This document shows, piece by piece, positions 1 to 16,239 of a DNA stretch of 36,462 nucleotides; position 1 is the stretch's first letter; the number at the start of each line of letters is the position of its first letter. The stretch is from an uncultured virus (IMG/VR IMGVR_UViG_3300032282_003039), in the IMG/VR virus record IMGVR_UViG_3300032282_003039, positions 1-36,462 of that record; one strand, 5' to 3'. The position numbers and the translations under genes were made by a program. The notes beneath the pieces were generated by a model, which was not told the origin of the DNA, made no database searches, and saw only the letters and a list, made by a program, of their open reading frames with translations.

Positions 1-347
1 AACTGTGACCCTTGCTCGAGTAGCCATACTAAGTTCTCCAAGTTCACGATGTAGATGTTTGCTGTAGTCTTGATTGCCGTTAAACGCTGCGACGGCGTTC
101 CTAAGATCTTCGCTATCGTCAAGTGCTGCAAATGTTGCCATTTTTTAGTCTCCTGTTCCCATACGGTCTCTGCTACTCGTTTAGGTGCCACAATTAAAGT
201 TGATCCTGCAAACTGTTGCGCAATAATAGTCAAAGTAGTGGCCGTTTTGCCAAGACCGGGGGGTAAAAATAAACCCATGTTTGGTACAGACAGCGCTTTA
301 TCAATAATTCCTAATTGATACGGATGAAGATTGTTTTTACTTAGCAC
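1..347 (-). CDS. SNF2-family (SF2) helicase, N-terminal part, runs off the window
   Basis: Not in the ORF track. Manual translation from GTG at 347 gives MLSKNNLHPYQLGIIDKALSVPNMGLFLPPGLGKTATTL...TLIVAPKRVAETVWEQE, with Q motif (LHPYQ), Walker A (GLGKT) and motif Ia (LIVAP). Confidence 0.88.
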   Translation of the reverse strand, partial: MLSKNNLHPYQLGIIDKALSVPNMGLFLPPGLGKTATTLTIIAQQFAGSTLIVAPKRVAETVWEQETKKWQHLQHLTIAKILGTPSQRLTAIKTTANIYIVNLENLVWLLEQGSQ

Positions 348-750
348 GTCGGTTTCCTTTTGAGGCATTCTCTGGTTTTGTAAGCAGTGTTAAATTCCAC
401 GGCACGTGTAGCCCACAAACGTCTTCACCTTGTAGTGGTTCTATATGATCTACTTCATATGCTTCACCCATAAAAATAGTTGCCAATTTAGCTCTTCTGT
501 ACCAGTTATTTATCTCGGGTTTTAAATGTTCTTTGCCCCATTTTAGCATGCGATTTAATTTAATAATTCGATATCTTGCTTTTTTGGCATTGTTTTTGTC
601 TTTGTTGTTTTGCGCCCAGGTACTGTTGTATTTTCTATCACAAATTTTGCAGTAAGTTCTAAAATTATCTTTTCTATATTTATCCTTGTTAAATTCACTT
701 TTGGGTTTTACTTGTTCGCACTTCGGACATTGTTTGGTTAATAAAGTCAT
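337..750 (-). CDS. HNH endonuclease with N-terminal zinc finger
   Basis: CPKC...CKIC zinc finger; C-terminal VDHIEPLQG..VCGLHVPWNL..L...EN HNH motif. Confidence 0.88.
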   Translation of the reverse strand: MTLLTKQCPKCEQVKPKSEFNKDKYRKDNFRTYCKICDRKYNSTWAQNNKDKNNAKKARYRIIKLNRMLKWGKEHLKPEINNWYRRAKLATIFMGEAYEVDHIEPLQGEDVCGLHVPWNLTLLTKPENASKGNRRAK

Positions 751-4339: not shown

Positions 4340-4354
4340 TACTAATGCAAACTT
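4340..4354 (-). promoter_or_regulatory. phage-specific promoter -10-like element AAGTTTGCATTAGTA
   Basis: Same GCATTAGT core as the four plus-strand motifs; lacks the GGCGGA upstream element; lies just upstream of the primase-helicase gene. Confidence 0.6.
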
Positions 4355-4406
4355 CATAATATCTTTTAGTTATAAAGGTTGTTTTCTATATAACTAAAAG
4401 TTTGGT

Positions 4407-4526
4407 TTTGTACCAGTAGTACTAGTAGTACCCCTTTATTCTACTTTATTTTTTATTTTTTATTTTTAAATTAAAAAAATATAAAAAGAGTTGAAGTAAG
4501 GGGTACTACTAGTACTACCCATACAA
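4407..4526. repeat. 120-bp element A: inverted repeats around an AT-rich core (origin- or terminus-like)
   Basis: Perfect 21-bp inverted repeat 4416-4436 / 4498-4518 around an almost pure A/T spacer; inverted homologue at 15752-15871. Confidence 0.9.
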
Positions 4527-4623
4527 TTTTATATAGCGGCTTGAATACAGAGCCTAGGAGGCGTTTTCCAAAAAAGTAAGGGGGTAGTAGCACCACCCCC
4601 TTAAAAACGCCGTATAGAGCGTT

Positions 4624-4802: not shown

Positions 4803-5003
4803 TTATTGAGGCTCATAGCCCGTTTGTTGAAGGTGCCGGTAAAACCATTTGCGAAAATGTTCCCTGTTTTTAGAGGTTTGCTTGTCGTTTGTGTCCCAAA
4901 CTGCCTGAATCACAAACTCCCCATCTAGGCTATGTGCCTCAATGTGGGTAAGATTACCCTCTTTATCGTATATGTCGGTGCAAATTACTCGCTTATCCAT
5001 CAT
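4803..5003 (-). CDS. hypothetical protein
   Basis: 66-aa ORF, ATGA-coupled to the upstream gene. Confidence 0.65.
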   Translation of the reverse strand: MMDKRVICTDIYDKEGNLTHIEAHSLDGEFVIQAVWDTNDKQTSKNREHFRKWFYRHLQQTGYEPQ

Positions 5004-5308
5004 AATTCCTTGATTTTGCTTGGTTTATCTTCCCATGAATCAACCACTCCATAATCCCCCCTACTTGATCTCATGCGTTCTTTTTCCCTAAATGCGGGTT
5101 CAACTTCTAACCATTCTTTAAATGCTTGTTTAAACTCTGCCCAATCTTCGTTTAAAACAAAAAGCGGGTGATTCATTCCAACAATATCGACTGTTTCGGT
5201 GTAATCTTTAGCGGGTATCCACTTTCCTTTTCCCCCAAAAATCTTGTTTCGTGCCTTAATAAATCTATCGTATGCCCTTTGTTGCTCATGGGTAAACTTA
5301 ATCATCAT
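5000..5308 (-). CDS. hypothetical protein
   Basis: 102-aa ORF overlapping the sigma-factor stop codon; SD GAGGA. Confidence 0.7.
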   Translation of the reverse strand: MMIKFTHEQQRAYDRFIKARNKIFGGKGKWIPAKDYTETVDIVGMNHPLFVLNEDWAEFKQAFKEWLEVEPAFREKERMRSSRGDYGVVDSWEDKPSKIKEL

Positions 5309-5867
5309 TGATATCCTCTAATTTTTCTTGGTTTAAATTGTCGATTGATACAGGTTCACGCATTACATAGCCCTGTAATTGGTTTAACTTAGCAACTGAT
5401 ATACCCATGATTTTTGCTAACTCATGCGGTTTTGGTTTTCTGCCTAGTATTTGGGATAATGCCCTGTCGTTGTAATTCATTTTCTTAACCAATTCCATGA
5501 TGTTAATTGGTAGTCTTATGATGTTGGCGGTGTTGTCTAACTCCCGCCTAACACCTTTTAAAATGAATGATTTTGCGTAGGTTGCAAACTTAGCCCTGTT
5601 TTTGGGTTTCCAACTTCGCCCCGCTAAAAACAGGCACTCATTACCCATAGCAATAATGTCCTCAACAGGCACTTTGCCATGATTCCATGCAGTCATCTTA
5701 CGCACTAAATACACTACAAAGCGTAGGTTGTGGGTGATGAGGGTATTTAATGCCCCATCATCACCCGCTTGTATGCGTTTTGCTAATTCGTGTTCCTGAT
5801 CTATTGTTAGGGGTTCGATTCCATAAAGGGCTTGTAGGTAATTGCTTAATAGGTCGTTTTCTGTCAT
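5298..5867 (-). CDS. sigma70-family RNA polymerase sigma factor (regions 1.2, 2, 3; no region 4)
   Basis: NYLQAL..LT..QE.ELA..IQAGD..A...LI..NLRFVV; GN..L; KFATYA..I; IIRLP; ELAKIMGIS...EPVSID, then a stop codon. Confidence 0.9.
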   Translation of the reverse strand: MTENDLLSNYLQALYGIEPLTIDQEHELAKRIQAGDDGALNTLITHNLRFVVYLVRKMTAWNHGKVPVEDIIAMGNECLFLAGRSWKPKNRAKFATYAKSFILKGVRRELDNTANIIRLPINIMELVKKMNYNDRALSQILGRKPKPHELAKIMGISVAKLNQLQGYVMREPVSIDNLNQEKLEDINDD

Positions 5868-5870
5868 TAA

Positions 5871-5909
5871 ATTTCATAATGTGAAATGGAAAACCCCGAT
5901 TATAACACA
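5871..5909 (-). promoter_or_regulatory. host sigma70 extended -10 promoter plus palindromic operator upstream of the phage sigma gene
   Basis: TGTG-T-TATAAT at 5909-5899 (TRTGn-TATAAT); palindrome ATTTCA-taatg-TGAAAT at 5871-5887. Confidence 0.6.
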
Positions 5910-5911
5910 AC

Positions 5912-6043
5912 TTAAAAATAATGTTTGTATAGCAAATAAAACCCTATTATTGGTATAACTATTAGTGATATCTCTGCTAAATTCTGAATAACCCAAATTA
6001 TTGTAACCAATGGTAAAAATAAAAACCCGCCAATAATGCTCAT
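5912..6043 (-). CDS. small hydrophobic membrane protein (43 aa)
   Basis: Manual translation MSIIGGFLFLPLVTIIWVIQNLAEISLIVIPIIGFYLLYKHYF; ATGA-coupled; SD GGAGAGG. Confidence 0.6.
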   Translation of the reverse strand: MSIIGGFLFLPLVTIIWVIQNLAEISLIVIPIIGFYLLYKHYF

Positions 6044-6228
6044 ATTAAAGCCTCTCCGCAAAGTAATAGTGAAGTTTCGTAAGGTGATGCCTGTTTAGGT
6101 AGTTTTTTTAGCGTTGTTCCCTTTGTTAGATATGGTCTAGCCTCTTGTTCGGTTGCGAATTTGCGTAAGGTGTCCCCAAACTCATCAACTAAAATAAATT
6201 TATACACAGATTGTTTAAACAACTTCAT
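6040..6228 (-). CDS. hypothetical protein
   Basis: 62-aa ORF in a tightly packed operon. Confidence 0.6.
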   Translation of the reverse strand: MKLFKQSVYKFILVDEFGDTLRKFATEQEARPYLTKGTTLKKLPKQASPYETSLLLCGEALI

Positions 6229-6478
6229 TGTCGCAAAATTTTTTGACTAGGTAGTAGTAATCTTTTCCTTCACCATTAAGTAAATGTTCGCCAACCCCTT
6301 CTAATGGTTTATTGTATTCGCAAAGGTTTAAGATACTTATTGCCTCAACAATCCATTGTGGCAATTCAGATACCTTTAGGTGCTTTACTACATCTGCGTA
6401 ATCCCTAGTAAGGTCTAAATCGGTGATGATTGCCTCATCACCGATTATATCCAATCGAAATGTATTGGGATATGTCAA
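6215..6478 (-). CDS. hypothetical protein; possible paralogue of the C-terminus of 6475..7305
   Basis: ELPQWIVEAISILNL...EGVG resembles DLPQDILEKLVILDL...EGLG in the upstream protein. Confidence 0.7.
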   Translation of the reverse strand: MTYPNTFRLDIIGDEAIITDLDLTRDYADVVKHLKVSELPQWIVEAISILNLCEYNKPLEGVGEHLLNGEGKDYYYLVKKFCDNEVV

Positions 6479-7305
6479 GCGAACACCGAATAAAAATCGG
6501 GTTTTTCTTTAACTCCCAACCCCTCATGCACTTCTATATTTTTTATATCCATGAGGTCTAGTATAACAAGTTTTTCTAAAATGTCTTGAGGTAGGTCTTG
6601 TTTAAACTTAACCACTATTTCGTCTGCAATAGGGCTATCTTTTTCAAACAATCTATACACAACTTGCGAGTTTCTTACCCACACATTATAATATTGCGGA
6701 TTATATACAGAAGTTTTAGATTCTTTTTCTTTGTAGGCTACTAAAAATTCAATAGCCTCTTGAAATTCTTTACTTATCGGTTTGTATCCTGTTTCATGCA
6801 ATTTCAGCATATCTGCGTGTAAACTATGCGGTATGTGATTAGTTCCATTATCTAACTCCCATGTATCGGTATTTTGTTTGCCGTAAATATGACTAGACAT
6901 CTGCCTAATATACAATCTGTCTTTATAATCCGACATTGTAGGTATTTTTAAAACCTCTTTAGCGATCTTAATGATATTTTTCATGTATATAGACGAATTA
7001 GCGTTCTCAGGTGAGCCACTCATATATCTACCCTGAGAATAAAAAGCACTACTAACCCACCATGCTTTATTATCTTTATAATATCCAATAGCCCCAACTC
7101 TTAGATCGGGTTCGTGTTTAAAGTAGATTTCGAGATAATTATAGTCGCAAGTTTCCTTACGATTCCATTCATTTTCTTTTGGTTTAAACAAGTAATTGTC
7201 ATTTTGTTTGATTAACTCATCACGCAAAACAATCACTTCGTCATTTAATTCAACATTATCTATTATTGTTTTCATAGTGTTATTCCCAACTCCTGTATTT
7301 ATCAT
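6475..7305 (-). CDS. hypothetical early protein
   Basis: 276-aa ORF; an alternative start at MKTIIDN follows SD AGGAG. Confidence 0.75.
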   Translation of the reverse strand: MINTGVGNNTMKTIIDNVELNDEVIVLRDELIKQNDNYLFKPKENEWNRKETCDYNYLEIYFKHEPDLRVGAIGYYKDNKAWWVSSAFYSQGRYMSGSPENANSSIYMKNIIKIAKEVLKIPTMSDYKDRLYIRQMSSHIYGKQNTDTWELDNGTNHIPHSLHADMLKLHETGYKPISKEFQEAIEFLVAYKEKESKTSVYNPQYYNVWVRNSQVVYRLFEKDSPIADEIVVKFKQDLPQDILEKLVILDLMDIKNIEVHEGLGVKEKPDFYSVFA

Positions 7306-8206
7306 AGACTAATTCACCTATTGGCACTTCAACTAATTTAAAAGGTTTTACTTTACGATATAGATGATTGTAAATGTATTTATTAAGTGATTTTTTATTG
7401 TATTCAATCGTATGCCTACCAAAATTATAGTATTCATTTTTAATCATGCGTTTATATTTTTCCACCAACTCAAACCAAACCTGATCAGCATCATGTTTAA
7501 ACAAGATGTCAATCGGAATATCATCTAGCGGGTTGCCACTATGATATTTGTCTGTTTCAATCAAATCAATCATAGTGTTAGCGTAATCAACAAAGGGCTT
7601 GATGTTTTTCCTTAATTCTTTGGTCTGTTCTTTATCTAACTCCCGAACAATCTCCCTATGCACTTGTAATGGTGAAAAATTGGGTTTATCTGGTTGCTTA
7701 CTAAAAACCAAATCACCCTTTGCCATTGTGTAGTATTTAGTCTTTTCATTAACAGTATGGGCTAAATATTTTTTACCCCTGTGGTTGTGCATACTAAACT
7801 CATGTGGCATTTTGTAATGGTAAAACCATAACATAGATGGGGTATCTAACCATCTAGGCATCAACTGATGGTTGTTCGTTTTGGGGGTATGAATTACGAT
7901 TGTTTCAGTATCATACCTTTTACTAAATGTAATTGCTCGACAATGGTTTTCAAAAACATCTTTAGTTTTGCTTTGAACCCAAGCATACGAATTAGCACTA
8001 ACATAATATTCTGTATCACTAACTTTAAAAACCCTTTCATGCGATCTGCCCCGATCACCAAGCGGTCTAATGTTTAAACTAGCCCTTTTGCCTTGAATTG
8101 GTTTTGTGTTTTCATAAATCTCTTTTACTTTATCAAAAGATAATCTATTTTGGTTGTCTATTTGCACTTGTAGGGGGGTGCGTGTTCCCCATTTTGAATA
8201 TCCCAT
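7280..8206 (-). CDS. hypothetical early protein
   Basis: 308-aa ORF, TAATG-coupled to the VWA gene. Confidence 0.75.
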   Translation of the reverse strand: MGYSKWGTRTPLQVQIDNQNRLSFDKVKEIYENTKPIQGKRASLNIRPLGDRGRSHERVFKVSDTEYYVSANSYAWVQSKTKDVFENHCRAITFSKRYDTETIVIHTPKTNNHQLMPRWLDTPSMLWFYHYKMPHEFSMHNHRGKKYLAHTVNEKTKYYTMAKGDLVFSKQPDKPNFSPLQVHREIVRELDKEQTKELRKNIKPFVDYANTMIDLIETDKYHSGNPLDDIPIDILFKHDADQVWFELVEKYKRMIKNEYYNFGRHTIEYNKKSLNKYIYNHLYRKVKPFKLVEVPIGELVYDKYRSWE

Positions 8207-9396
8207 TACATATCTCCCGAATCAATGTTAATAACTGAACCTACCTTTGGTATAGCGTGTGGATTATCTAAAATACACCATAAAACAGGGCAATTCCACT
8301 CACCACCCCAATCATCACCGACACAACCATCTGTCAAAACAATAGCACATACAGGAGTAATGCTATTCTTTTTCATGTATTTAGTGATACATTTTGGTGA
8401 TGTTCCCCCGCCACCTTTGGGCTTGGTTGATGTAGTCATTTTATCCCACTCACCCAATCCATAAACCTCATGCCCCGCAACTTCTGTATCCCAATAAAGT
8501 AAATCTACCAATTCGGGGTTTACATTTTCCATCATCTTGGAAACTTCACTAATGAATCGGTTTAAAATACGACCACCAATCGACCCTGAAGTATCAATAG
8601 CAACCACTACCCTACCCATTGTTTCGCTATATGTTGATGGCATATACATATCATGTTGCAACCATCTGCGATTAGGTTTTCGCCAAGTGCTATCGTCTTT
8701 TCCACTACATACTGCACTAACATACTCAGCGAGGGCGGTTTTCCAATCGACTTTTGCACTCATCAAATCGGTAAATGATCTATCAACTTTACCCCCAACC
8801 TTACCCGCTAAAATTGCACCCTGACGAATTGCTTGGTCTATCTCTTTTTCCAATTCTGCTTTTTCCTCGTCAGTCATCTCGTCTGCGTTTTCCCAATCAT
8901 GCTCATCTAGTTTAAACACACCATCACCCCCGCCACCATAACCATATTCGTCAGGCAATAATGCAAATACATCTGCGGTGCTTAAACCTTTAAACTTATG
9001 ATTGATTAGCCCACCTTCAGGCACGACACAAAATCGTTCGCCCTTGTTGTCGGTGTGTTCTTTACCCTCGTCATCAATCTCTAAATTGATAACATAATCA
9101 CAAGCCATATTAGTTTTGGTGCGGTTGATCTTGGCTAAGTGTTTCCATGTAAGCAAGTGTCTATACATCTTGTGTTTTGCCTCATGCAAAATCAAACCCC
9201 GCAACTCATTATCTTTTAGACTTTCAACAAAAGCACGACCATATTCAATATCCCGCCCATTGGTTCTAGCGGTGTCTAAATCATCAATCACTTTGGATTC
9301 ACCCACCATAATTAGACTTGTGTATGCCACAAATCCCTTATGCCTCATAATTTCGGTGTGTGCTTTTTCAATGCGTTGTTCTGCGGTTAGTTTCAT
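8206..9396 (-). CDS. HExxH metallopeptidase-like + VWA domain protein (DUF2201-like)
   Basis: TARTNG; LILHEAKH; NMACDYVIN; MIDAS motif AIDTSGS; GGGT; IVLTDG. Start reassigned to MKLTAEQRI at 9396. Confidence 0.88.
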   Translation of the reverse strand: MKLTAEQRIEKAHTEIMRHKGFVAYTSLIMVGESKVIDDLDTARTNGRDIEYGRAFVESLKDNELRGLILHEAKHKMYRHLLTWKHLAKINRTKTNMACDYVINLEIDDEGKEHTDNKGERFCVVPEGGLINHKFKGLSTADVFALLPDEYGYGGGGDGVFKLDEHDWENADEMTDEEKAELEKEIDQAIRQGAILAGKVGGKVDRSFTDLMSAKVDWKTALAEYVSAVCSGKDDSTWRKPNRRWLQHDMYMPSTYSETMGRVVVAIDTSGSIGGRILNRFISEVSKMMENVNPELVDLLYWDTEVAGHEVYGLGEWDKMTTSTKPKGGGGTSPKCITKYMKKNSITPVCAIVLTDGCVGDDWGGEWNCPVLWCILDNPHAIPKVGSVINIDSGDM

Positions 9397-9397
9397 G

Positions 9398-9790
9398 TTA
9401 AACCTTTCCCCAATAGCCATATACCATCTTGTTTGAGCAATCCCAAATATCATTTGGAATACCATCTATTACTGCCACATAATGCCCCGCTTGTTGGGCT
9501 ATTATTGCACCCTTAGGCATATCACTACACCTTGCCTTACGACCTTCAAACTTTGGTGCTGAGTGCCATATCCACCCATACTTTTTCAAAACATCTGAAT
9601 ACACATCTTTATAAATCCCATCTCTTGCGGATTTTTTAAAACCTTTATTTTTATTTGCTTGGGCTAATTCGTTATAAGCGGTTTGATAATCCAAACCTAA
9701 AGCGATTGATAATGCTCTTGCCCCGCAATCCCCCGCCCTACCCTTATAACCCGCTTTAGACCTACCACCATCATTAAATATAAAATTCAT
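9398..9790 (-). CDS. phage protein with possible Cys/His catalytic dyad
   Basis: NDGGR..AG.KG.AGDCGARA...GHYVAVIDG..D.WD; the peptidase-like function is an inference. Confidence 0.65.
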   Translation of the reverse strand: MNFIFNDGGRSKAGYKGRAGDCGARALSIALGLDYQTAYNELAQANKNKGFKKSARDGIYKDVYSDVLKKYGWIWHSAPKFEGRKARCSDMPKGAIIAQQAGHYVAVIDGIPNDIWDCSNKMVYGYWGKV

Positions 9791-9931
9791 AATTGCCTTT
9801 CATTGAATCCATAATATATTTTCGCCCACCTTGCTTGGAAAATATATTAGGGGAAACCCTAGTTTTGATATGGTAATGTTTCACAATATGAAATAGTTTC
9901 ATGTCAATAGGTGTTTACCCTAATATGTAGT

Positions 9932-10108
9932 TTAAACATTCTCCTCATAACTTAGGTATGGTTTATATGGTTTTAATGCTTTACCGAAAGCGTAATACAT
10001 TGGGCTAATTTCGTCAATTAAATTTTGTTTTTCTGCTTTAGTAATTGCCTTAAATAGTTTATGTTGCAAACTGTTTTCATATTCCAATTCAATTCTGCTT
10101 TTAATCAT
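9932..10108 (-). CDS. small hypothetical protein (58 aa)
   Basis: Manual translation MIKSRIELEYENSLQHKLFKAITK...EENV; preceded by GAGGGAGTTTAAACATT. Confidence 0.55.
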   Translation of the reverse strand: MIKSRIELEYENSLQHKLFKAITKAEKQNLIDEISPMYYAFGKALKPYKPYLSYEENV

Positions 10109-10125
10109 AATGTTTAAACTCCCTC

Positions 10126-11202
10126 TTAACTAGCAAACATATAATTATTATCGGTAGCCCACTTAATAAATTCCTTATTCGTGCCTACTATTAACTTTTT
10201 ATTGGTTCGCATAACTGATGTAGCAAATAGCCCTTGTGATTCTTTAGACAATCTAGCCATGTATTTTAACCAAAATGGCATTGTATCTTTTTCTACTTGT
10301 TGGACTGCGGAATAGACTAACATACATACTGCACTTGGGCTTTTAGGAATAGGTGTTTTAATCGGGTCTTTAATGATGCTTTCCCAATCAGGTAATTGAT
10401 CACCTAACTGAACAATACTTAGCGTGTCATATGTTGCTCTATCGCCAATCGTTCCCTTTAATGCGTGTCCTAAAATATCCATGCCTAATGGTTTTGCTTT
10501 TTTAATAATATCTGATGCTTTTTCTAAACTGCGTGGTGTCGTAAAAGATGGGCGGGGTGTGCGAGGGTCATAAATATATTCGTTATCTTTATGGTTGTCG
10601 TAATCTTCAAAAGATGCCAACATCTGCGGAAACTGTTTGACTGTTTGCAATATTTCAGGGGCTATCCCATTGTCAAGAGCATAATTTTCTAACCACTCAT
10701 CTGCGGTTGGTTTACGCACTTTCACTACGCACAATCTGTTTCTAGCGTGTGGCGGTAACATATCACCAATGCCTTCTGTTGCTAGGTTTGTAGTAGCGAA
10801 TACAATACTGCCTTTGGGTAATTCGTAAACCCCTAACTTGCGTTCTAGCATCAATCTTAAACAAGCGTTCATAACTGCTTTTGATGCCTTGCCAATCTCA
10901 TCAAGCATTAAAACAATGGGCTTATCGTGGTGAAAACCAAATTCCTCATTGGGAATAAAACTACAAACTTCGGTGTCGTTTAAACTTCTTATCTTCGGCA
11001 CTAGAAAATCCCCTACATCTTTAGTAGTCATATCACCATAACAGTAATGGTATCTATCGCCTAGTTTATCTCTAAGGGTTTTTAAGATTGATGATTTACC
11101 AATGCCCATTTCGCCCTGTGCTAAAACTGTGGTGTGCGTTCCAACTGCTAAAATAAGGTCTGCGGTTTGTTGAAGTGAAATTGATTTATATAAGTTTGAC
11201 AT
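10126..11202 (-). CDS. MoxR-like AAA+ ATPase
   Basis: Walker A GEMGIGKS; Walker B LMLDE; sensor I ATTN; NR arginine finger; TPRS sensor II; VWA partner gene nearby. Confidence 0.9.
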   Translation of the reverse strand: MSNLYKSISLQQTADLILAVGTHTTVLAQGEMGIGKSSILKTLRDKLGDRYHYCYGDMTTKDVGDFLVPKIRSLNDTEVCSFIPNEEFGFHHDKPIVLMLDEIGKASKAVMNACLRLMLERKLGVYELPKGSIVFATTNLATEGIGDMLPPHARNRLCVVKVRKPTADEWLENYALDNGIAPEILQTVKQFPQMLASFEDYDNHKDNEYIYDPRTPRPSFTTPRSLEKASDIIKKAKPLGMDILGHALKGTIGDRATYDTLSIVQLGDQLPDWESIIKDPIKTPIPKSPSAVCMLVYSAVQQVEKDTMPFWLKYMARLSKESQGLFATSVMRTNKKLIVGTNKEFIKWATDNNYMFAS

Positions 11203-11223
11203 TCTGTTGCCTTTATTGGTTGG

Positions 11224-11322
11224 TTATAAAGATAAAACTACAAATAAGAGTAAACCTAAAAATATAATAAGTAAAGCGGTTAATGCAAAAACTTCAAGGG
11301 TCGATTCGGTTTCATATTGCAT
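11224..11322 (-). CDS. single-pass membrane peptide (32 aa)
   Basis: Manual translation MQYETESTLEVFALTALLIIFLGLLLFVVLSL; preceded by GAGGGGGTTTAAAC. Confidence 0.55.
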   Translation of the reverse strand: MQYETESTLEVFALTALLIIFLGLLLFVVLSL

Positions 11323-11327
11323 AGCGT

Positions 11328-11528
11328 TTAAACCCCCTCTCTAAGTATGTTTAAATAGATTTCATTAACTGCCATTGTGATGCCATCAACTCGATCTTTA
11401 CCATATCGCCTACACATAATCTTATAGGTTCTATAATCGTCATCTTCTGCATTGATGTCGCTAATGATGTTCACAATTTCATAAAACTGTAATTCGGTTA
11501 GCGTTGGTTTTTCGTGGTCTTTAATCAT
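11328..11528 (-). CDS. hypothetical early protein
   Basis: 66 aa; GGGAG-TTTAAAC-ATG start context. Confidence 0.7.
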   Translation of the reverse strand: MIKDHEKPTLTELQFYEIVNIISDINAEDDDYRTYKIMCRRYGKDRVDGITMAVNEIYLNILREGV

Positions 11529-11742
11529 GTTTAAACTCCCTAAAATTAAAATCTTTTATCCATTCAACCCGAACAGTAGCGGGGTCAATCCACTTGGAAA
11601 GCATCTTAAATTCAGGGCTTTCAAGCGGGTAGGATACAAGTAAATGCCCCGCAAATCTAAACCCGCTTTCACCCACTTTGTCTAGTCGGTAAAAATGTGG
11701 TTCAGTTTTGCGGTGGTGATACAACTTTACAACTTTAACCAT
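11521..11742 (-). CDS. hypothetical early protein
   Basis: 73 aa; GTTTAAAC just before the ATG. Confidence 0.65.
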   Translation of the reverse strand: MVKVVKLYHHRKTEPHFYRLDKVGESGFRFAGHLLVSYPLESPEFKMLSKWIDPATVRVEWIKDFNFREFKHD

Positions 11743-11747
11743 ACTGT

Positions 11748-11930
11748 TTAAACTCTGCCATCTAGTAATTCGTTTAACCGAATTTGATACAATTCCTCTA
11801 CCGATTCAAACTCGAATGAATCAGCACCATAAATATAAAAAGTTTCACCCAATAGCGAATGAGCCTCTTTTACACTATCGCATTGTTCTAACTCATATAA
11901 AATTTTATTAAAAGGGTTTGGCATATCCAT
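11748..11930 (-). CDS. acidic hypothetical early protein
   Basis: 60 aa, 13 D/E versus 4 K/R; GAGGGT-GTTTAAAC-ATG start context. Confidence 0.7.
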   Translation of the reverse strand: MDMPNPFNKILYELEQCDSVKEAHSLLGETFYIYGADSFEFESVEELYQIRLNELLDGRV

Positions 11931-11932
11931 GT

Positions 11933-12154
11933 TTAAACACCCTCGCTATAAATTTCGGATTCGTCAGGGTCAATCGTATAGTCGCAACTATCAAGCCAAT
12001 CATTAAACCCGCACCTGTAAGCGGTTGGGTCTAACTCTTTTAATACTCTGCTAGGGTCAAACTCTATCCCCGCTATATTGATCGGGGAATAGAGTTCGTC
12101 TAACATTTCGTCATATAAATCTAAAGCGGTTGATTCGTCTATAAATTCAAGCAT
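11933..12154 (-). CDS. highly acidic early protein (candidate DNA mimic)
   Basis: 73 aa, 20 D/E versus 3 K/R; YDEMLDE...S.VLKE.DPTAYRCGFNDW; SD GAGG. Confidence 0.7.
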   Translation of the reverse strand: MLEFIDESTALDLYDEMLDELYSPINIAGIEFDPSRVLKELDPTAYRCGFNDWLDSCDYTIDPDESEIYSEGV

Positions 12155-12158
12155 AATT

Positions 12159-12276
12159 AGCCTCTTAGGTTGTAATGGTTTACTGCCCCCGCTTGTCTAG
12201 GCGGGTCTGTATTGGTTCACATATTGAGCCTCTTAGGTTGTAATGGTTTACTGCCCCCGCTTTTCTAGGCGGGTTT
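12159..12276. repeat. tandem duplication, 50-bp unit with 68-bp period, containing a hairpin and RBS
   Basis: AGCCTCTTAGGTTGTAATGGTTTACTGCCCCCGCTT(G/T)TCTAGGCGGGT at 12159 and 12227. Confidence 0.9.
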
Positions 12277-12321
12277 ATGGTTCGCTTTTGTGTGGTTGTG
12301 TGTCCTTTCATGGTTCGTGGT

Positions 12322-12495
12322 CTAGGTATTGTTTAAACATTCCCCAACTTTTACTGCGTGAGCCATATTTAGGATATGCTCAAATAATCCATCTAATTTA
12401 GGCGATGCGTAGCCATGTAGTGCAAGGTCTAACAGGGCAATATCATCATTGTATAAGGTTAATGATATGGTGATGGGTGTGTCGTGGTTAATCAT
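12322..12495 (-). CDS. small hypothetical protein (57 aa)
   Basis: Manual translation MINHDTPITISLTLYNDDIALLDLALHGY...; preceded by GGGAGTATTTAAAC. Confidence 0.55.
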   Translation of the reverse strand: MINHDTPITISLTLYNDDIALLDLALHGYASPKLDGLFEHILNMAHAVKVGECLNNT

Positions 12496-12497
12496 GT

Positions 12498-12659
12498 TTA
12501 AATACTCCCTGTTGAAATTAAGCCATTCAAATAATCACCCGCCACTTTTATGTCGTTGTTTTCTTTTCTAAAACTGCCTTCGTAGATTGCTCGGTTTTCG
12601 TCAATCTCAAGCCAATCTAATATCCTACAAAATGCCTCAAATTCCTTTTTGGTCATCAT
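12498..12659 (-). CDS. small hypothetical protein (53 aa)
   Basis: Manual translation MMTKKEFEAFCRILDWLEIDENRAIYEG...; preceded by GAGGGAGTGTTTAAAC. Confidence 0.6.
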   Translation of the reverse strand: MMTKKEFEAFCRILDWLEIDENRAIYEGSFRKENNDIKVAGDYLNGLISTGSI

Positions 12660-12673
12660 GTTTAAACACTCCC

Positions 12674-12901
12674 TCATTTAGTTAATTCGTCAAAAAAATC
12701 TTGGGGCTTTTCTGTTGCCACAACACCATCAAGCCATTTATTTATATGTCGGGTTGTAGTGTTTGACCACTTCATAGCGGTTTTATAATATTCGTTGTCA
12801 TTAAACGAGTGATAAGCAACAGGGGTTTTGTAACTGAATAGCACCTTCCCATTGTTGGTTATGACTTCATTCATGTTTTTAGAGATTGGGTTTAATTGCA
12901 T
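12674..12901 (-). CDS. small early phage protein
   Basis: VLFSYKTPVA...KWSNTTTRHINKWL pattern, recalled from phage early regions; SD AAGGA. Confidence 0.75.
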   Translation of the reverse strand: MQLNPISKNMNEVITNNGKVLFSYKTPVAYHSFNDNEYYKTAMKWSNTTTRHINKWLDGVVATEKPQDFFDELTK

Positions 12902-12913
12902 GATGTTGATTCC

Positions 12914-13114
12914 TTAAAATATGGTTTTAAAAAAGGGTGTTTCGGGTTGTTTTAATTCTACCGAATAACCTAATTGTTTTGCAAGGTTTATTGTGTTCGG
13001 TAATAGGGTTTTAGTGTTGGCTATTTTGGCGAACACTTGGGCGGGTTCATTCACAGGGTAATAAACTGTATTCCCATAAACTTGCCTTTGCTCTATCAAA
13101 ATTGTTTGATTCAT
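12914..13114 (-). CDS. hypothetical early protein
   Basis: VYGN..YYPVN..A..FA.IA.TKTL pattern; SD AAGGA. Confidence 0.7.
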   Translation of the reverse strand: MNQTILIEQRQVYGNTVYYPVNEPAQVFAKIANTKTLLPNTINLAKQLGYSVELKQPETPFFKTIF

Positions 13115-13126
13115 TTTGGTTTTTCC

Positions 13127-13345
13127 TTAATCGTTTAGTGGAATGTTGTTGGCTTCTAAAATCTTACATAATAAATTTTCTATAATCAACACCTTTCGCC
13201 CTGTCGCTGAAATGTCTAATTCATCAGCAATAAAAAACAATTTATTCTGTTCGTTATTGTATTTGATGGCATTGTCAAGGGTTAAAAACTTGTCAAGGTT
13301 TTGGGTTGTGTTGATGGTCTTAATGAATTGGTCTGATGGTTGCAT
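13127..13345 (-). CDS. hypothetical early protein
   Basis: 72-aa ORF; GTTTAAAC before the ATG. Confidence 0.6.
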   Translation of the reverse strand: MQPSDQFIKTINTTQNLDKFLTLDNAIKYNNEQNKLFFIADELDISATGRKVLIIENLLCKILEANNIPLND

Positions 13346-13383
13346 GGTGTTTAAACAATGCGGGGTTTCCCCCGCACCCTTTC

Positions 13384-13584
13384 TTATATGGTTGGTTTGC
13401 CTAGCATTGTGGCTAATTGGTTATAAACTGCGGTTTTATTGCCCTTATATCCCAATTCGCTTTTGATAATAGAGTAAGCGGTTCTACCTCTATTCATGCG
13501 TAGCCCTTTAATTTCAAGTTTTAAACCTGAGAGCAAAGTAAAATAGCGAAATAACTCGATTTTTTCGGGGGTGTCTATCATCAT
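13384..13584 (-). CDS. hypothetical early protein
   Basis: L.SGLKLEIKG.RM.RGRTAY.IIK.ELG.KG pattern; SD AAGGA. Confidence 0.7.
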   Translation of the reverse strand: MMIDTPEKIELFRYFTLLSGLKLEIKGLRMNRGRTAYSIIKSELGYKGNKTAVYNQLATMLGKPTI

Positions 13585-13795
13585 GTTATCTATTCCTTTT
13601 TAGGTTAGTGTTTCAATATATGGCTAATTGCCACAATTAAATTAGATCAAACTGTGAAGATTATGTAAAGGTTTTTTATATATCGAATAGTTATAAAACA
13701 ACTGTTTTTTATACTAAGGGTTTACCCTCGAAAATCGAGATCGTGGTGTTGGTGAGGTAAGGGTAGCCCGAACATAGAAAAGGGCTATAAACCCC
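13585..13795 (-). promoter_or_regulatory. early promoter/leader block, copy 2
   Basis: Shares GGTTAGTGTTTCAATATATGGC..AATTGCCA, GGGTTTACCCT..AAAATCGAGATCG and GGGCTATAAA with 15015-15250. Confidence 0.65.
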
Positions 13796-13888
13796 CTTAA
13801 AACTCGCCCAAATTGATTACGGGTTTATGGGCTTGGAACAAAGGCAATTTTTTGGCGGGGCGGGGCTTGTTTAAACAATGCAAGGGGC

Positions 13889-13915
13889 AAAAAAAATCGG
13901 GGCATAGCCCCGATT
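13889..13915 (-). terminator. Rho-independent terminator
   Basis: Minus strand reads AATCGGGGC-TAT-GCCCCGATT followed by a T run, downstream of 13935..14312. Confidence 0.8.
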
Positions 13916-13934
13916 GGTTTAAACACTTGGTAGG

Positions 13935-14312
13935 TCAGAATGAATCGGGGTTGCAATCCCTGTTGTAATCTGCGAAATATTCCGCATCGCTGACCCAATC
14001 ATTAGCCTCACAAGCCTCACCATTTTTAGCGGGGGTTGATTTGGGTAGTAAAATCACCCATTCCCATATAGGGGCTTCAGTCCCGCATGAAAATTGACCT
14101 ACGCAAAAACAAACAGGGAAGGGGTAATCAAGATTAGGGCGGGAAGTGTTATAACCCGCACTATCAGCAACCCGCCAAGAGGTTGTTCGGGGGTTATGGC
14201 GGGGGAGATTAACTAGCCCCTCAATGGTTGCCCCTTGCGAATGAGGGCGGGGGATATCTTCGACAAACTCGCCCTTTTGTGATCTGCTTACATCATATTT
14301 AAAGACTTTCAT
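13935..14312 (-). CDS. hypothetical early protein
   Basis: 125-aa ORF with SD GGAG, followed by a terminator. Confidence 0.7.
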   Translation of the reverse strand: MKVFKYDVSRSQKGEFVEDIPRPHSQGATIEGLVNLPRHNPRTTSWRVADSAGYNTSRPNLDYPFPVCFCVGQFSCGTEAPIWEWVILLPKSTPAKNGEACEANDWVSDAEYFADYNRDCNPDSF

Positions 14313-14366
14313 TTTAGAATCTCCAATTAGTTTAAACAGGGGGCGGGATTGCCCCCCGCTTGGTTT

Positions 14367-15014
14367 TTATTCCTCGCCCTCGCCATCTTCGGGGGTGTAT
14401 TCACTCCACATTTTGCCATGACCTAGAGGGCATTTGGGAACCGCTATTTTTAACCATTTGCTAGATGTGCGTAAAGCATATCCACACTTTAGACACTTAC
14501 AAGCAAGATTGCGGGTGGTTTGCTTTTTATAGCGGGTTGAAAGGGTGGAGTGTGGATACTCACCCTCTGCCTCTACCCATTGGTTAATAAGGGCTAGTAG
14601 CCACTCACCCGCATTGGTAGAGGTGAGTTTACCCTCTAGTCCTACTGCCCTAGCACAATCACCAAAAACCTTGTTATGCCCCTCTTTATTGCCGACAGTA
14701 GCGTGACATAACTCATGCACTAAAACATCAATAACCCTAGCGGAATCGGCTAGGCTTGGCACAATCATAATTTGAAAGGTGTTATCGCTAGACATAGAGG
14801 GCGAGTAGCACTCGCCAAGTGTGAATCGCTTTTGATGGGCTTTTGTGTGAATCCCGCCACTAGCCAAAGAACAAGAGAGGCGAATATTGGCGGGGATTGT
14901 GTAGCCCTTTGAAGCAAACAAGGGGCGGAGATACTTATTGGTAATGAGGGTTAGCCATGCCTCACGATTGGCATTGGTAGCCGATTGGCTAGGGGTGTAG
15001 GTTAGTAGTAGCAT
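14367..15014 (-). CDS. SprT-like zinc metalloprotease-family protein with C-terminal zinc ribbon
   Basis: LGEC; VLVHELCHA...GHNKVF; C-terminal CLKCGY...CPLGH. Start reassigned to ATG 15014 (SD AGGA; the sequence upstream is the duplicated leader). Confidence 0.8.
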   Translation of the reverse strand: MLLLTYTPSQSATNANREAWLTLITNKYLRPLFASKGYTIPANIRLSCSLASGGIHTKAHQKRFTLGECYSPSMSSDNTFQIMIVPSLADSARVIDVLVHELCHATVGNKEGHNKVFGDCARAVGLEGKLTSTNAGEWLLALINQWVEAEGEYPHSTLSTRYKKQTTRNLACKCLKCGYALRTSSKWLKIAVPKCPLGHGKMWSEYTPEDGEGEE

Positions 15015-15280
15015 TTTTTCTATTCCTAATATGGTTAGTGTTTCAATATATGGCGAAATTGCCATACCTCAAAAATAATAGGAATGTTGTTTAAACTCTA
15101 TTAGGGGAAACCCTTAGTTTCTTTATTCTTTTTAGTTATGGGTTTGGGTTTCTATATACTTAGGGGTTTACCCTTACAAAATCGAGATCGCATAGGGCTT
15201 GATACTAACCCATCAACTGAGGGCAAAATGGCATGGCGGGGCTATAAAGGGCATTGGCGGGGTTTCATATTGTGGAATAG
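15015..15280 (-). promoter_or_regulatory. early promoter/leader block, copy 1, with palindromic operators
   Basis: Homologous to 13585-13795; AGGGGAAACCCT at 15103, AGGGGTTTACCCT at 15162, TTTCATATTGTGGAA at 15263. Confidence 0.65.
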
Positions 15281-15369
15281 CGTTTATTCGGTTTAGTGTT
15301 GTATTTATGCCACATCACCACTCAGGCTCTCGCACCCGCTTAGTTTAAACGCACTCAGCGTATCAGCCA

Positions 15370-15529
15370 TGTTGCACCGCACCATTGTTGCACCGCACAA
15401 AGACCATGATGCCATTGTGGTTATGTTGCACCGCACAAAGACCATGATGCCATTGTGGTTATGTTGCACCGCACCAATCAGCCATGTTGCACCGCACCAT
15501 TGTTGCACCGCACCATTGTTGCACCGCAC
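15370..15529. repeat. array of seven TGTTGCACCGCAC direct repeats
   Basis: Copies start at 15370, 15386, 15424, 15462, 15485, 15501 and 15517; includes an exact 38-bp tandem duplication. Confidence 0.92.
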
Positions 15530-15534
15530 CATCA

Positions 15535-15591
15535 TGCACCAATGTGGTGCATCATGCACCAAATTGGGGAACAATGCACCAATTTGGTGCA
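15535..15591. promoter_or_regulatory. three NtrC-consensus boxes at 20-bp spacing
   Basis: TGCACCA-atg-TGGTGCA (15535), imperfect TGCACCAAATTGGGGAA (15555) and TGCACCA-att-TGGTGCA (15575); established NtrC consensus TGCACCA-N3-TGGTGCA. Confidence 0.65.
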
Positions 15592-15594
15592 TAG

Positions 15595-15626
15595 GGGGTG
15601 TTGTAAAAAAGCAACACCCCTTTTTG
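15595..15626. other. inverted repeat GGGGTGTTG-N8-CAACACCCC followed by a T run (operator or plus-strand terminator)
   Basis: Perfect 9-bp inverted arms seen directly. Confidence 0.5.
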
Positions 15627-15751
15627 AGCCTCTCGACAAGGCTTAGGTCTGGGGGCCCCACAAAGCTCAAGTTTTTATATTTTTTCTGTAATTTTTTTTA
15701 ATTGAGAATTATTCCTATTTAAAGACCAACTATCAAGCACTTAGGCGCGAT

Positions 15752-15871
<120 letters not shown>

Positions 15872-15895
15872 TTTAAAATATATTTTTGGATTTAA

Positions 15896-15925
15896 GGCGC
15901 CAAACATATAAAGTTTGCATTAGTT
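15896..15925 (+). promoter_or_regulatory. putative phage late promoter (variant)
   Basis: GGCGCC-N15-GCATTAGTT, 5 nt before the ATG at 15931. Confidence 0.65.
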
Positions 15926-15930
15926 GATAT

Positions 15931-16239
15931 ATGAACAATTATGTTTACCAAATTGCCGGAGCTTTAGAAAGCGCCCATGGAAAACTTCAAGGTTTTCGGG
16001 TTATGGTATGTAATGTTCTATATTTTGATACGGTAGATGTTCCATCAAGCGTTCTTGATAAAGAAACCATCAAATTCTTAGAGTTCCGTCTCAAATTGAC
16101 CAAAGACGCATTGGATATCCAAAAACTGCCTTACAAAATCCAACGCGCAATCAGAGAGCCGTTAGGGCATTTCTTAGACGATTGGGTCCTTAAAAACTTT
16201 TATGGCGATACTATCAAATCAAAAAGTACTAACTCTTGA
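15931..16239 (+). CDS. hypothetical protein, first gene of the packaging operon
   Basis: 102 aa; ATG lies directly after the promoter with no SD, so possibly leaderless. Small terminase by position only. Confidence 0.65.
   Translation: MNNYVYQIAGALESAHGKLQGFRVMVCNVLYFDTVDVPSSVLDKETIKFLEFRLKLTKDALDIQKLPYKIQRAIREPLGHFLDDWVLKNFYGDTIKSKSTNS

Follow-up and report, generated by a model that had tools for sequence, protein, structure and literature searches.

An exact eight-base palindrome labels an exchangeable early module in a family of uncultivated phages

Introduction

No part of a phage genome is less well understood than its early region, and the cis-acting signals there have been worked out in only a handful of model phages. 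The stretch of DNA analyzed here, the whole IMG/VR record IMGVR_UViG_3300032282_003039 from an uncultured virus (36,462 bases, 56% complete according to CheckV; hereafter the window), raises a question of this kind: why should one exact palindrome of eight bases, GTTTAAAC, be written 22 times into a single block of about 10 kb, between genes as well as inside them? We conclude that selection maintains GTTTAAAC as a cis-acting label of one exchangeable early module of ~10 kb in this phage family. As to what the word does, we favor, with a probability of roughly 0.4, the reading that it is a duplex-DNA site for a symmetric and highly specific factor that acts on the module as a whole. We infer that a protein binds the word, that it does so as a dimer and that its binding affects the module; the block itself is regarded as early from its gene order and content.

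Results

Enrichment of the word in one block of the window

A pattern search found 22 perfect copies of GTTTAAAC in the window, all between positions 5128 and 15350 and none in the other ~26 kb, which reproduces the count and every coordinate of the original prediction. Dinucleotide-preserving shuffles gave a mean of 1.27 copies and a maximum of 5, with none of 100 shuffles reaching 22, and Markov models of orders 0 to 4 predicted 0.98-3.7 copies. The enrichment is thus about 17-fold, and it is confined to 10.2 kb of the 36.5 kb. It also survives codon-aware null models: the 10 intragenic copies compare with 1.52 expected from synonymous shuffling within genes (0 of 1000 shuffles reached 10) and with 1.39 when codons were redrawn from late-gene usage (0 of 500). 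The runner-up among eight-base palindromes in related loci has at most 5-6 copies. The enrichment of GTTTAAAC is therefore due neither to chance, nor to composition, nor to codon usage.

The word is used in its exact form. One-mismatch neighbors number 11 in the region, against 17.9 ± 3.9 expected from an order-3 model trained on that region, and 22 in the remaining 26 kb; since near-matches are not enriched, recognition appears to be all-or-none. The longer form TGTTTAAACA occurs 7 times, each time inside the motif region, so that the description of the copies as often extended fits 7 of the 22 and fails for the rest.

The word marks an exchangeable module

Relatives were collected in two ways. 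A first set of 18 IMG/VR loci, found through the AAA protein of the block, comprises 11 loci with 12-40 copies of GTTTAAAC and 7 with none. Whole motif-bearing records contain 44, 33, 31, 36 and 40 copies, against 0-3 of the reversed word, and five records of the motif-free group contain 0, 2, 0, 2 and 0, one of the zero-copy records being 66 kb long with terminal repeats. This motif-free group, a second phage group, has only a sub-module of MoxR, VWA, 308-aa and 276-aa genes in common with the window and carries it without the motif. In a nearly complete motif-bearing relative of 59 kb (G001), 33 of the 44 copies fall within 9 kb, and the other 11, spread over ~50 kb, amount to a mild excess outside the module.

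The second set was obtained by a search with the sigma factor encoded next to the block, for which an alignment of six orthologues was used; it returned 192 relatives, from which 80 loci were kept. Density was counted over 81 loci (these 80 and the window), 59 of which extend 4 kb or more upstream of the sigma gene; the 22 with shorter flanks, two of them high-density, were set aside, and some loci are overlapping views of one contig. Upstream of sigma, the density of GTTTAAAC is bimodal, at 1.6-3.4 per kb in 17 of the 59 loci and at most 0.12 per kb in the other 42. In a tree of sigma factors with 49 distinct rows, 14 of them motif-bearing and 35 motif-free, the motif label takes 6 changes, at least three of which are forced by well-supported branches, and one motif-free phage nests together with the window and the motif-bearing relative closest to it, with support of 100/97. 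Likewise, a complete motif-bearing genome of 66 kb (G011) has 25 copies, whereas a complete genome of 68 kb (G015) whose sigma factor is 84% identical has 3, equal to the control word. When motif-bearing and motif-free relatives with a common sigma are compared, homology starts only 42-300 bp upstream of the sigma gene, and the sigma gene itself contains a single GTTTAAAC site, in one of 14 genomes.

Taken together, the bimodal density, the label changes on the sigma tree, the onset of homology just upstream of sigma and the near absence of the word from the sigma gene show that GTTTAAAC marks an exchangeable early module of ~9-10 kb, and neither the whole leftward transcription unit nor a sigma regulon. 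The presence of the module is mosaic and independent of sigma phylogeny. The original prediction had taken the whole early region as the unit; confinement to one segment stands, but the marked unit is the module, which ends just upstream of sigma.

Some of the motif-free sigma relatives have a repeated word of their own. In L150, L152 and L154, the early regions repeat an extended ribosome-binding word of the GAATAGGAGAA type, 12-13 times per locus, which points to a uniform junction sequence specific to each lineage.

Conservation and spacing of the copies

In a codon alignment of the AAA gene, the site of one window copy (copy 10, 10978-10985) reads AGT TTA AAC (Ser-Leu-Asn) in all 12 motif-bearing genomes, and Thr-Ile-Asp or Asp-Ile-Asn in 7 motif-free genomes. 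The eight bases are invariant while adjacent synonymous positions vary, and two further GTTTAAAC sites arose in sub-lineages of this gene through amino-acid changes. Of 1671 ordered comparisons over seven module genes in 13-14 lineages, 796 (48%) find an aligned GTTTAAAC site in both genomes, whereas other 8-mers match in 9.9%; intragenic copies are thus conserved at orthologous sites well above the background. Turnover accompanies this conservation: many sites are unique to one lineage, and the 276-aa gene alone has 12 different site columns.

The copies are also spaced more evenly than random. In the window, the gaps range from 48 to 1085 bp with a coefficient of variation (CV) of 0.60 against 0.96 for random placement (P=0.008), and the largest gap, 1085 bp, compares with 1776 bp expected (P=0.017). 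Across 13 lineages, the CV is 0.43-0.80; in 11 of them it is smaller than for random placement (CV 0.43-0.66, P≤0.025), and mean gaps are 273-509 bp, which bears out the earlier description of a site every few hundred base pairs. By these comparisons, GTTTAAAC is under purifying selection with turnover, and selection acts on coverage.

Among 156 dereplicated copies, 97 (62%) lie at or near gene ends and 59 (38%) deep in open reading frames (ORFs), and the deep copies use both stop-avoiding frames (28 and 31). The use of both frames, the origin of sites through amino-acid changes, the orthologous conservation and the even spacing support the view that selection maintains a signal which works at a level below that of the protein. 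U_UUA_AAC is a -1 frameshift slippery site, which calls for the heptamer in the X_XXY_YYZ frame within a gene; frameshifting was rejected as a general explanation because the frames are split 28/31 and 62% of the copies stand at gene ends.

Could the pattern have arisen without any function? Biased repair or gene conversion, coupled to a sequence-specific enzyme, might turn near-matches into GTTTAAAC and so leave a functionless word. Such a drive would account for many exact copies with one-mismatch neighbors at or below expectation, and for the mild excess outside the module in some relatives, as in the 11 extramodular copies of the 59-kb relative; the same kind of pattern is known for the cyanobacterial palindrome HIP1, whose function is debated in the portions of the literature at hand (PMC5861425; PMC4390886). 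However, the even spacing, the sharp restriction to the module and the nearly word-free sigma gene are not what a drive would be expected to leave, and no match to N6/N4 (PF01555) or D12-class (PF02086) methyltransferases was found in four motif-bearing records, a search that covered these two families among phage genes and neither other families nor host enzymes. We regard a functionless drive as very improbable. The word is also the specificity of PmeI, but a type II restriction-modification target, which phage DNA would be expected to avoid or to accompany with a cognate methyltransferase, is not what the data describe, the sites being strongly enriched and the two methyltransferase families not found.

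Junction anatomy and the individual copies

The copies at gene junctions follow a stereotyped layout. Their flanks are symmetric: 61 of 97 have T at -1 and 79 of 97 have A at +1, whereas the flanks of intragenic copies are only weakly symmetric (20 and 25 of 59, respectively). Apart from the purine-rich Shine-Dalgarno (SD) positions before the word and the start codon after it, no second conserved element was found within 25 nt. A larger collection from 14 loci, with 273 dereplicated copies, gave a bimodal distance between the motif and the first ATG of an ORF: 58 copies stand 0-1 nt and 41 stand 17-32 nt before it, and for 133 copies no ORF starts within 60 nt. At the first class of junction (SD-GTTTAAAC-ATG), the word fills the spacer between the SD sequence and the ATG, and in five cases in the window the TAA within it is the stop codon of the upstream gene. 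The proteins encoded upstream of the junctions end in Gly/Ser-Val, and SD, stop, spacer and start are thereby packed into 17 nt. At the second class, a GC hairpin (for example GGCGGGG-N4-CCCCCGCC) is followed by 2-3 bases, the motif and a leader with AGGA or GGAG, and a T stands before the G of the motif; most of the lineages listed keep the unit of this class that follows the SprT-like gene. Under a strict test for perfect stems, 20 of the 273 copies have a hairpin, and 12 of these 20 lie 15-60 nt upstream of an ATG. The original prediction described the copies as dispersed, and they do occur at gene interiors as well as at gene ends and between genes, as it stated; what it missed is that ~60% of them sit at junctions in this SD/stop/start layout, where cassette swaps also break.

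In the window, the module with the motif (5868-15350, minus strand, early genes) extends between the divergent intergenic region and the gap before the sigma gene and holds 21 of the 22 copies, numbered here by coordinate. Copy 22 (15343-15350) belongs to the divergent intergenic region and is separated by 20 bp from the first of a series of iterons. Three copies follow a GC hairpin: copy 21 (15089-15096) precedes a 23-nt leader with GAGG and the ATG of the SprT-like gene; copy 20 (14330-14337), separated from its hairpin by CT, precedes a 17-nt leader with GGAG and the ATG of a 125-aa ORF, an arrangement kept in other lineages; and copy 17 (13349-13356) stands between ATT and ACC, the latter followed by the ATG of a 72-aa ORF. 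Copies 19 (13917-13924) and 18 (13869-13876) are intergenic, the former adjoining a terminator-like hairpin placed directly after it (13915-13895, minus strand) and the latter lying beyond the T run of that hairpin. Copy 16 (12660-12667), at the junction following the DUF8033 gene, is set between GAGGGAGT and an ATG; copy 12 (11529-11536) is set between AGGGA and the ATG of a 66-aa ORF, and belongs at the same time to the 3' coding sequence of the upstream ORF, which overlaps the 66-aa one; and copy 9 (10112-10119) follows AGAGGGA and is separated by ATT from the ATG of a 58-aa ORF.

The TAA provides the stop codon in copy 14 (11931-11938; a 73-aa ORF, with the ATG of the next ORF abutting the motif), copy 13 (11746-11753; a 60-aa ORF, with the next ATG 3 nt downstream), copy 11 (11326-11333; a 66-aa ORF, with GAGGGG before the motif), copy 8 (9930-9937; a 58-aa ORF) and copy 2 (6213-6220; an 87-aa ORF, overlapping the start region of a 62-aa ORF). 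Copy 15 (12331-12338) lies within the 3' end of a 57-aa ORF. Besides copy 10 in the MoxR-like AAA gene, longer genes contain copy 7 (8910-8917, DUF2201/VWA gene), copies 6 and 5 (8072-8079 and 7495-7502, 308-aa gene) and copies 4 and 3 (7182-7189 and 6600-6607, 276-aa gene). Copy 1 (5128-5135) is within a 102-aa gene downstream of sigma, outside the mosaic module.

Cassette exchange at the junctions

Haplotypes that are 95-99% identical (L001, L003 and L006, of the set L001-L006) differ by whole cassettes. A mini-ORF cassette of 124 bp is bounded by direct repeats of GGGAGTGTTTAAACATG; in a replacement of 175 by 1152 bp, divergence begins right after a motif and ends at the ATG behind the next copy, which lacks one base in one of the haplotypes; and alternative small ORFs are placed between repeated hairpin-motif-leader units. 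Two events depart from this pattern: one of 73 bp lies 203-276 bp away from the motif, and one junction uses the leader 10 nt downstream. Breakpoints of cassette swaps thus coincide with motif junctions in most, but not all, events, and the junction is retained although the small ORFs turn over fast among lineages.

These observations bring in the possibility that GTTTAAAC, together with the SD, the ATG and often a G-run/C-run hairpin, is a shared junction for the swapping of small early cassettes, through short-homology recombination or a site-specific enzyme. Such a linker would resemble the PeSLs of T4-type phages, which carry the same G-run/C-run stem-loops, flank ORFans and act as crossover points in the accounts available (PMC2839356; PMC4122927). 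The exchanged cassettes described above, the persistence of the junction and the Gly/Ser-Val-stop ends of the upstream ORFs, which fit a constant 17-nt segment of SD, stop, spacer and start, are all in its favor. As an explanation of the word itself, however, it faces several difficulties. The 38% of copies deep in genes, some of them conserved, would delete parts of genes if they recombined; eight bases are too short by themselves for homologous recombination; breakpoints at gene ends are expected anyway, since only such recombinants survive; some events break away from the motif; and neither a recombinase tied to the motif nor a tyrosine integrase was seen. We therefore consider it unlikely that exchange is the purpose of the word, although this alternative deserves serious attention. 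A role in exchange may well coexist with a duplex-DNA site: because GTTTAAAC is the one sequence common to the cassette junctions, gain, loss and replacement of cassettes would break there.

Duplex DNA or messenger RNA

The original prediction held that the signal acts at the DNA level. Action below the protein level is upheld by the data above; the choice between DNA and RNA, on the other hand, is not one that a palindrome can make on a block of genes that all lie on one strand. In favor of the duplex-DNA site are the perfect two-fold symmetry of the word, its symmetric flanks and copy 22 at 15343, which lies in the divergent intergenic region. We also count in its favor the exactness of the word, its conservation and even coverage, its restriction to the module, the lack of a second conserved element nearby and the predicted accessibility given below, with the stoperators of mycobacteriophages as a precedent (PMC9283540).

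Several points weigh against this preferred reading. Exact placement between SD and ATG is not obviously needed by the site of a regulator and suits an RNA-level signal equally well, as do the hairpin-motif-leader units; the uniform gene direction allows an RNA reading of the same palindrome; and sites of transcription factors are usually more degenerate than GTTTAAAC. The search for a DNA-binding protein adds to these points. Pfam and PHROGs assigned no function to the small ORFs of the module, and no GntR (PF00392, five records), HTH_3 or ParB_N domain was found in motif-bearing genomes, the complete 66-kb genome included. A 75-aa DUF8033 protein (12674-12901, minus strand) gave a confident structural model (pLDDT 91.7), for which the best match in the Protein Data Bank (PDB) had E=0.47 and no fold match was significant; a basic helical protein of 66 aa (13384-13584) gave a low-confidence model (pLDDT 61.7). 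The proposal of a dispersed binding site coating the segment fares accordingly: a site for a symmetric factor also ranks first here, but no binder emerged from searches by domain, fold and family.

An action on RNA would mean that GUUUAAAC in the early messenger RNA (mRNA) is the target of an endoribonuclease or an RNA-binding repressor, which would bring about rapid early shut-off as transcripts are processed beside protective hairpins and ribosome-binding sites are inactivated. RegB and RegA of T4 are models of such a specific endoribonuclease and RNA-binding repressor, respectively. All copies lie on the sense strand of a single co-oriented block, the two preferred distances to the ATG place the word at ribosome-binding sites or in leaders, the GC hairpin of the second class would end the upstream fragment, and even spacing would supply each stretch of mRNA with a site. 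A perfect palindrome of eight bases with symmetric flanks is, however, unexpected for a single-stranded target, and the copy at 15343 possibly lies upstream of the transcript. Moreover, accessibility in predicted mRNA folds is no higher for intragenic motifs than for composition-matched words (0.55 against 0.52, p=0.16) and is lower for junction motifs (0.48 against 0.545, p=0.013), and a nuclease candidate was not identified. On balance, an RNA-level signal seems rather unlikely to us, and the duplex-DNA site remains our preferred reading.

Promoter-like placement and the phage sigma factor

The window encodes a phage sigma-70-family factor of 189 aa that consists of regions 1.2, 2 and 3 only (5298-5867, minus strand, without the motif), and the extended word TGTTTAAAC might be a -10-only promoter, one per cassette, for polymerase carrying this factor, which lacks region 4, or for a modified host enzyme. 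Late promoters of T4 are likewise a bare 8-mer, and in the hairpin units the motif stands at a suitable 17-32 nt before the ATG, with the SD in between and a T before the G. Four observations argue otherwise. From the commonest placement, past the SD and 0-1 nt short of the ATG, transcripts would begin within the gene; the element is symmetric, and nothing within 25 nt of it gives a direction; GTTTAAAC stands at chance level in complete relatives whose sigma factors are 84-87% identical; and a conserved element before the primase and late operons is devoid of GTTTAAAC, as is the late region as a whole. The phage-sigma promoter was therefore rejected, because the word is missing from that element and is not co-inherited with sigma, and we rate any promoter role as improbable. 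Nor does the window have an excess of sigma-70-like promoters (35 against 39.5 in shuffles).

The element just mentioned occurs twice in the window, upstream of the primase operon (4340-4560, minus strand) and upstream of the late operon (15740-15935, plus strand). It is ~150-200 bp long, contains GTACTACTAGTACTACTGGTAC and A/T-rich stretches, with a run of 27 T at 15799-15825, and is present in the window and in G001; in genomes of the G001 type, GTACTACTAGTACTACTGGTAC is replaced by ACCCATACTACCCTGACAA, which occurs ~13-15 times per locus. It is a candidate for a middle or late promoter, or for a regulator site, of the phage sigma factor.

Proteins that track the module

A presence/absence comparison over 2,788 ORFs yielded six families that are found in 16-17 of the 17 motif-bearing loci and in none of the 42 motif-free loci. 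Four of the six make up the MoxR sub-module (6475-11202, minus strand), with genes for a MoxR-like AAA protein (10126-11202), a DUF2201/VWA protein (8206-9465) and the 308-aa and 276-aa proteins. Because this sub-module occurs without the motif in the first motif-free group, only two proteins are left that track the motif across the ~70 related loci, the SprT-like protease and the 75-aa DUF8033 protein. The SprT-like gene is present in 16 of the 17 motif-bearing loci and in 0 of 42 motif-free loci, and is absent from group B. Among viral models, that of the DUF8033 protein matches solely other DUF8033 proteins; the family is widespread in phages and is therefore not specific to GTTTAAAC. The basic 66-aa protein is missing from some motif-bearing haplotypes. 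We take the association of the SprT-like and DUF8033 proteins with the motif as linkage within one block, and the two proteins as leads only.

A bolder version of the DNA reading is that the module encodes its own reader, which the iterated palindrome would recruit along the module DNA, so that the word would be an address label in a mobile unit of site and reader. In one form, the palindrome would tether or activate the SprT-like protease on early phage DNA, where it would strip off host silencers or defense proteins; members of the SprT-like family are DNA-dependent proteases. In another, a new kind of small dimeric protein would coat the module and later silence it. If true, this would be a self-contained system of site and reader that moves between phages as a unit, but we hold it to be quite doubtful.

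Genome setting and entry into the cell

Genes point leftward from position 1 to ~15,300 and rightward from ~15,900. The first gene of the module encodes an SprT-like zinc metalloprotease with a C-terminal zinc ribbon (14367-15065, minus strand; Pfam PF10263 and alignment); about a dozen ORFs of 50-75 aa follow, and then the MoxR-like AAA ATPase, DUF2201/VWA, 308-aa and 276-aa genes. A gap of 170 bp sets the sigma gene off from the module genes upstream of it, two small genes lie downstream of it, and a strong terminator-like hairpin with a T run (4577-4603, minus strand) closes the leftward unit. Beyond this hairpin are genes for a D5-type primase-helicase and an HNH protein and a helicase gene of the SNF2 family (3-368, minus strand), which is truncated at the left end of the record; since this gene is cut, the record is a fragment, in line with its CheckV estimate. 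The rightward arm contains the large terminase and further long ORFs, including one of 927 aa without a Pfam match and a repeat-rich one of 1342 aa, whose length and position suggest a tail protein. The late proteins of 1342 and 531 aa contain long coding repeats of 9, 18 and 24 nt (27434-30786 and 34113-34763), which consist of words of the TCTGG/AGCGG type, the other over-represented 8-mers of the window.

The relative G001 adds a family A DNA polymerase, a class II ribonucleotide reductase, an Enc34-type single-stranded-DNA-binding protein and a DUF2800 nuclease, and its replication arm also includes a beta-ketoacyl-synthase-like gene beside the reductase gene (L020, 13612-14721, minus strand), an unusual auxiliary gene for a phage of ~60 kb. 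No tyrosine integrase was found in the motif-bearing genomes, the complete G011 included, in a search that did not extend to serine integrases; the phage is therefore probably lytic, with a sigma-factor switch. A megablast search of 5000-15500 against GenBank phages gave no match, and the protein searches matched only distant isolates.

Beside the module lies an iteron block (15370-15592) that is conserved in G001 and consists of seven TGTTGCACCGCAC iterons, at 15370, 15386, 15424, 15462, 15485, 15501 and 15517, together with 19-bp ATGCACCAATGTGGTGCAT-type palindromes; with the hairpin and T run that follow, the dense stretch covers 15370-15625. It may serve as a replication origin, as a packaging site or as an operator array.

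The position of the module bears on the idea that the copies serve the DNA that enters the cell first, either shielding it from nuclease in the manner of Chi or ratcheting it into the cell. The block abuts the intergenic region beside the terminase genes, the word is, like Chi, an exact 8-mer in many copies, and the first gene of the block belongs to a family of proteases that act in dependence on DNA. Nevertheless, in the complete G011 the terminal repeats sit on the assembled contig and the block is mid-contig; Chi and other translocase signals are polar rather than palindromic; and motif-free relatives with the same replication and sigma genes, and therefore probably with similar hosts, do without the word. 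We find a role at injection improbable. A likeness to the injection-stop region of T5 was rejected, since that region, with clustered non-coding repeats and DnaA boxes, has a different anatomy.

Discussion

The finding is real and robust, and its conservation extends over many independent metagenomic contigs. The signal is clean and strongly selected: there are 20-40 evenly spaced copies, written even into protein sequences, and they are present or absent as a block in uncultivated phages. How might such a word work? We propose that a two-fold symmetric (dimeric) protein would read GTTTAAAC as double-stranded DNA and be bound every 300-500 bp, and that, once bound, it would act on all of the module together; the most plausible effect is that transcription would be blocked or shut off when the sigma program starts, in the manner of a roadblock repressor. 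The reader could be an unrecognized product of the module or a host protein.

Under this proposal, the placement of the word would reflect least cost. In a tightly packed operon, the 8-nt spacer between SD and ATG would be the one place where an 8-mer fits without touching a protein, the TAA within the word could double as the stop codon of the upstream gene, and in long genes the word would have to be written into coding sequence. Because the SD must stay within reach of the ATG, a motif placed in the spacer would end 0-1 nt from the ATG.

The module offers an entry to the questions of how a module is controlled or protected as a unit, how small cassettes are exchanged and why iterated palindromes such as HIP1 exist. 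With its presence/absence contrast between close relatives, a phage module of 10 kb would be a far simpler test bed for the last of these than a cyanobacterial chromosome.

Several known systems share features with the word. Chi, KOPS and uptake sequences are over-represented exact 8- to 12-mers that are asymmetric, polar and a property of host chromosomes; with GTTTAAAC they have in common that they are exact short words in high copy, in coding and non-coding DNA. No paper on GTTTAAAC, or on a comparable module-restricted palindrome in phages, was found in a literature search that did not cover supplementary files. We also scanned the genomes of 185,579 species for three GTTTAAAC copies spaced 180-210 nt and kept 80 loci of 104 stretches. 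Among the loci inspected, no genome is peppered with GTTTAAAC and none encodes relatives of the module; they hold CRISPR arrays, tandem repeats and hairpin repeats instead. In L046, L049, L053, L062, L072, L075, L106 and others, CRISPR repeats end in GTTTAAAC, so that the palindrome adjoins each spacer; such arrays occur in cyanobacteria, Thiorhodospira, Propionivibrio and a nanoarchaeote, and their GTTTAAAC is probably unrelated to the phage word. For the window itself, a CRISPR repeat array was rejected because the flanks are unrelated and the spacing varies from 48 to 1085 bp, and mimicry of type III crRNA tags was rejected because a single copy shields only abutting protospacers. A 3.4-kb contig of a Burkholderiaceae metagenome-assembled genome (L037, 1313-1729) contains seven copies in ~400 bp of apparently non-coding DNA, several as GTTTAAACGCATCCCCACGA; this cluster adjoins TTATCCACA, which is DnaA-box-like, and the contig has no protein similarity to the phage of the window.

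In pattern, GTTTAAAC resembles the operators of GntR-family regulators, described as NyGT-Nx-ACNy in general and as GTMTAKAC in the HutC subfamily in the source as available (PMC4494728). They share GT-N4-AC, a central TA, an A/T-rich core and a palindromic form, and GntR readers are winged-helix dimers. Unlike the HutC core, however, GTTTAAAC has T and A at the third and sixth bases (M and K), and the resemblance is one of pattern only.

The stoperators of cluster A mycobacteriophages (L5 type) are, from the available part of the account, more than 20 near-identical sites, many of them in short intergenic spaces, at which one phage protein blocks transcription (PMC9283540). Both they and GTTTAAAC are short sites that occur many times in a phage genome, in part in short intergenic spaces. 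Stoperators are asymmetric, orientation-dependent 13-mers spread genome-wide and bound by the monomeric immunity repressor of a temperate phage (PMC9283540), whereas GTTTAAAC is a palindrome, is also intragenic and is restricted to a module, in phages in which we found no tyrosine integrase and recognized no repressor.

PeSL cassettes of T4-type phages are described, in the passages accessible, as ~100 bp long, with strong sigma-70-like -35 and -10 boxes and G-run/C-run hairpins (PMC2839356; PMC4122927). They share with the GTTTAAAC junctions the SD and ATG, with a conserved subset of these junctions the hairpins, and further the flanking small ORFans and the crossovers by insertion, deletion and replacement. 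Unlike PeSLs, the GTTTAAAC units are constant over only 8-10 bp, have no sigma-70-like promoter and contain a strict hairpin in only 20 of 273 copies, with 38% of copies being intragenic.

HIP1 (GCGATCGC) is an exact 8-bp palindrome that is over-represented tens of times in cyanobacterial chromosomes and conserved beyond codon usage; in the text available, selection apparently acts on its distribution more than on single sites, an origin through biased repair or conversion has been proposed, and phage are not mentioned (PMC5861425; PMC4390886). Both words are exact, over-represented 8-bp palindromes that occur in coding and non-coding DNA and are conserved beyond codon usage. HIP1 is chromosome-wide and, according to the same partial sources, tied to cognate orphan methyltransferases, whereas GTTTAAAC belongs to a phage, is restricted to one module of ~10 kb and is concentrated at junctions. 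Of these systems, HIP1 is the closest match to GTTTAAAC in kind, PeSLs the closest in junction anatomy and recombination, and stoperators the closest in proposed action.

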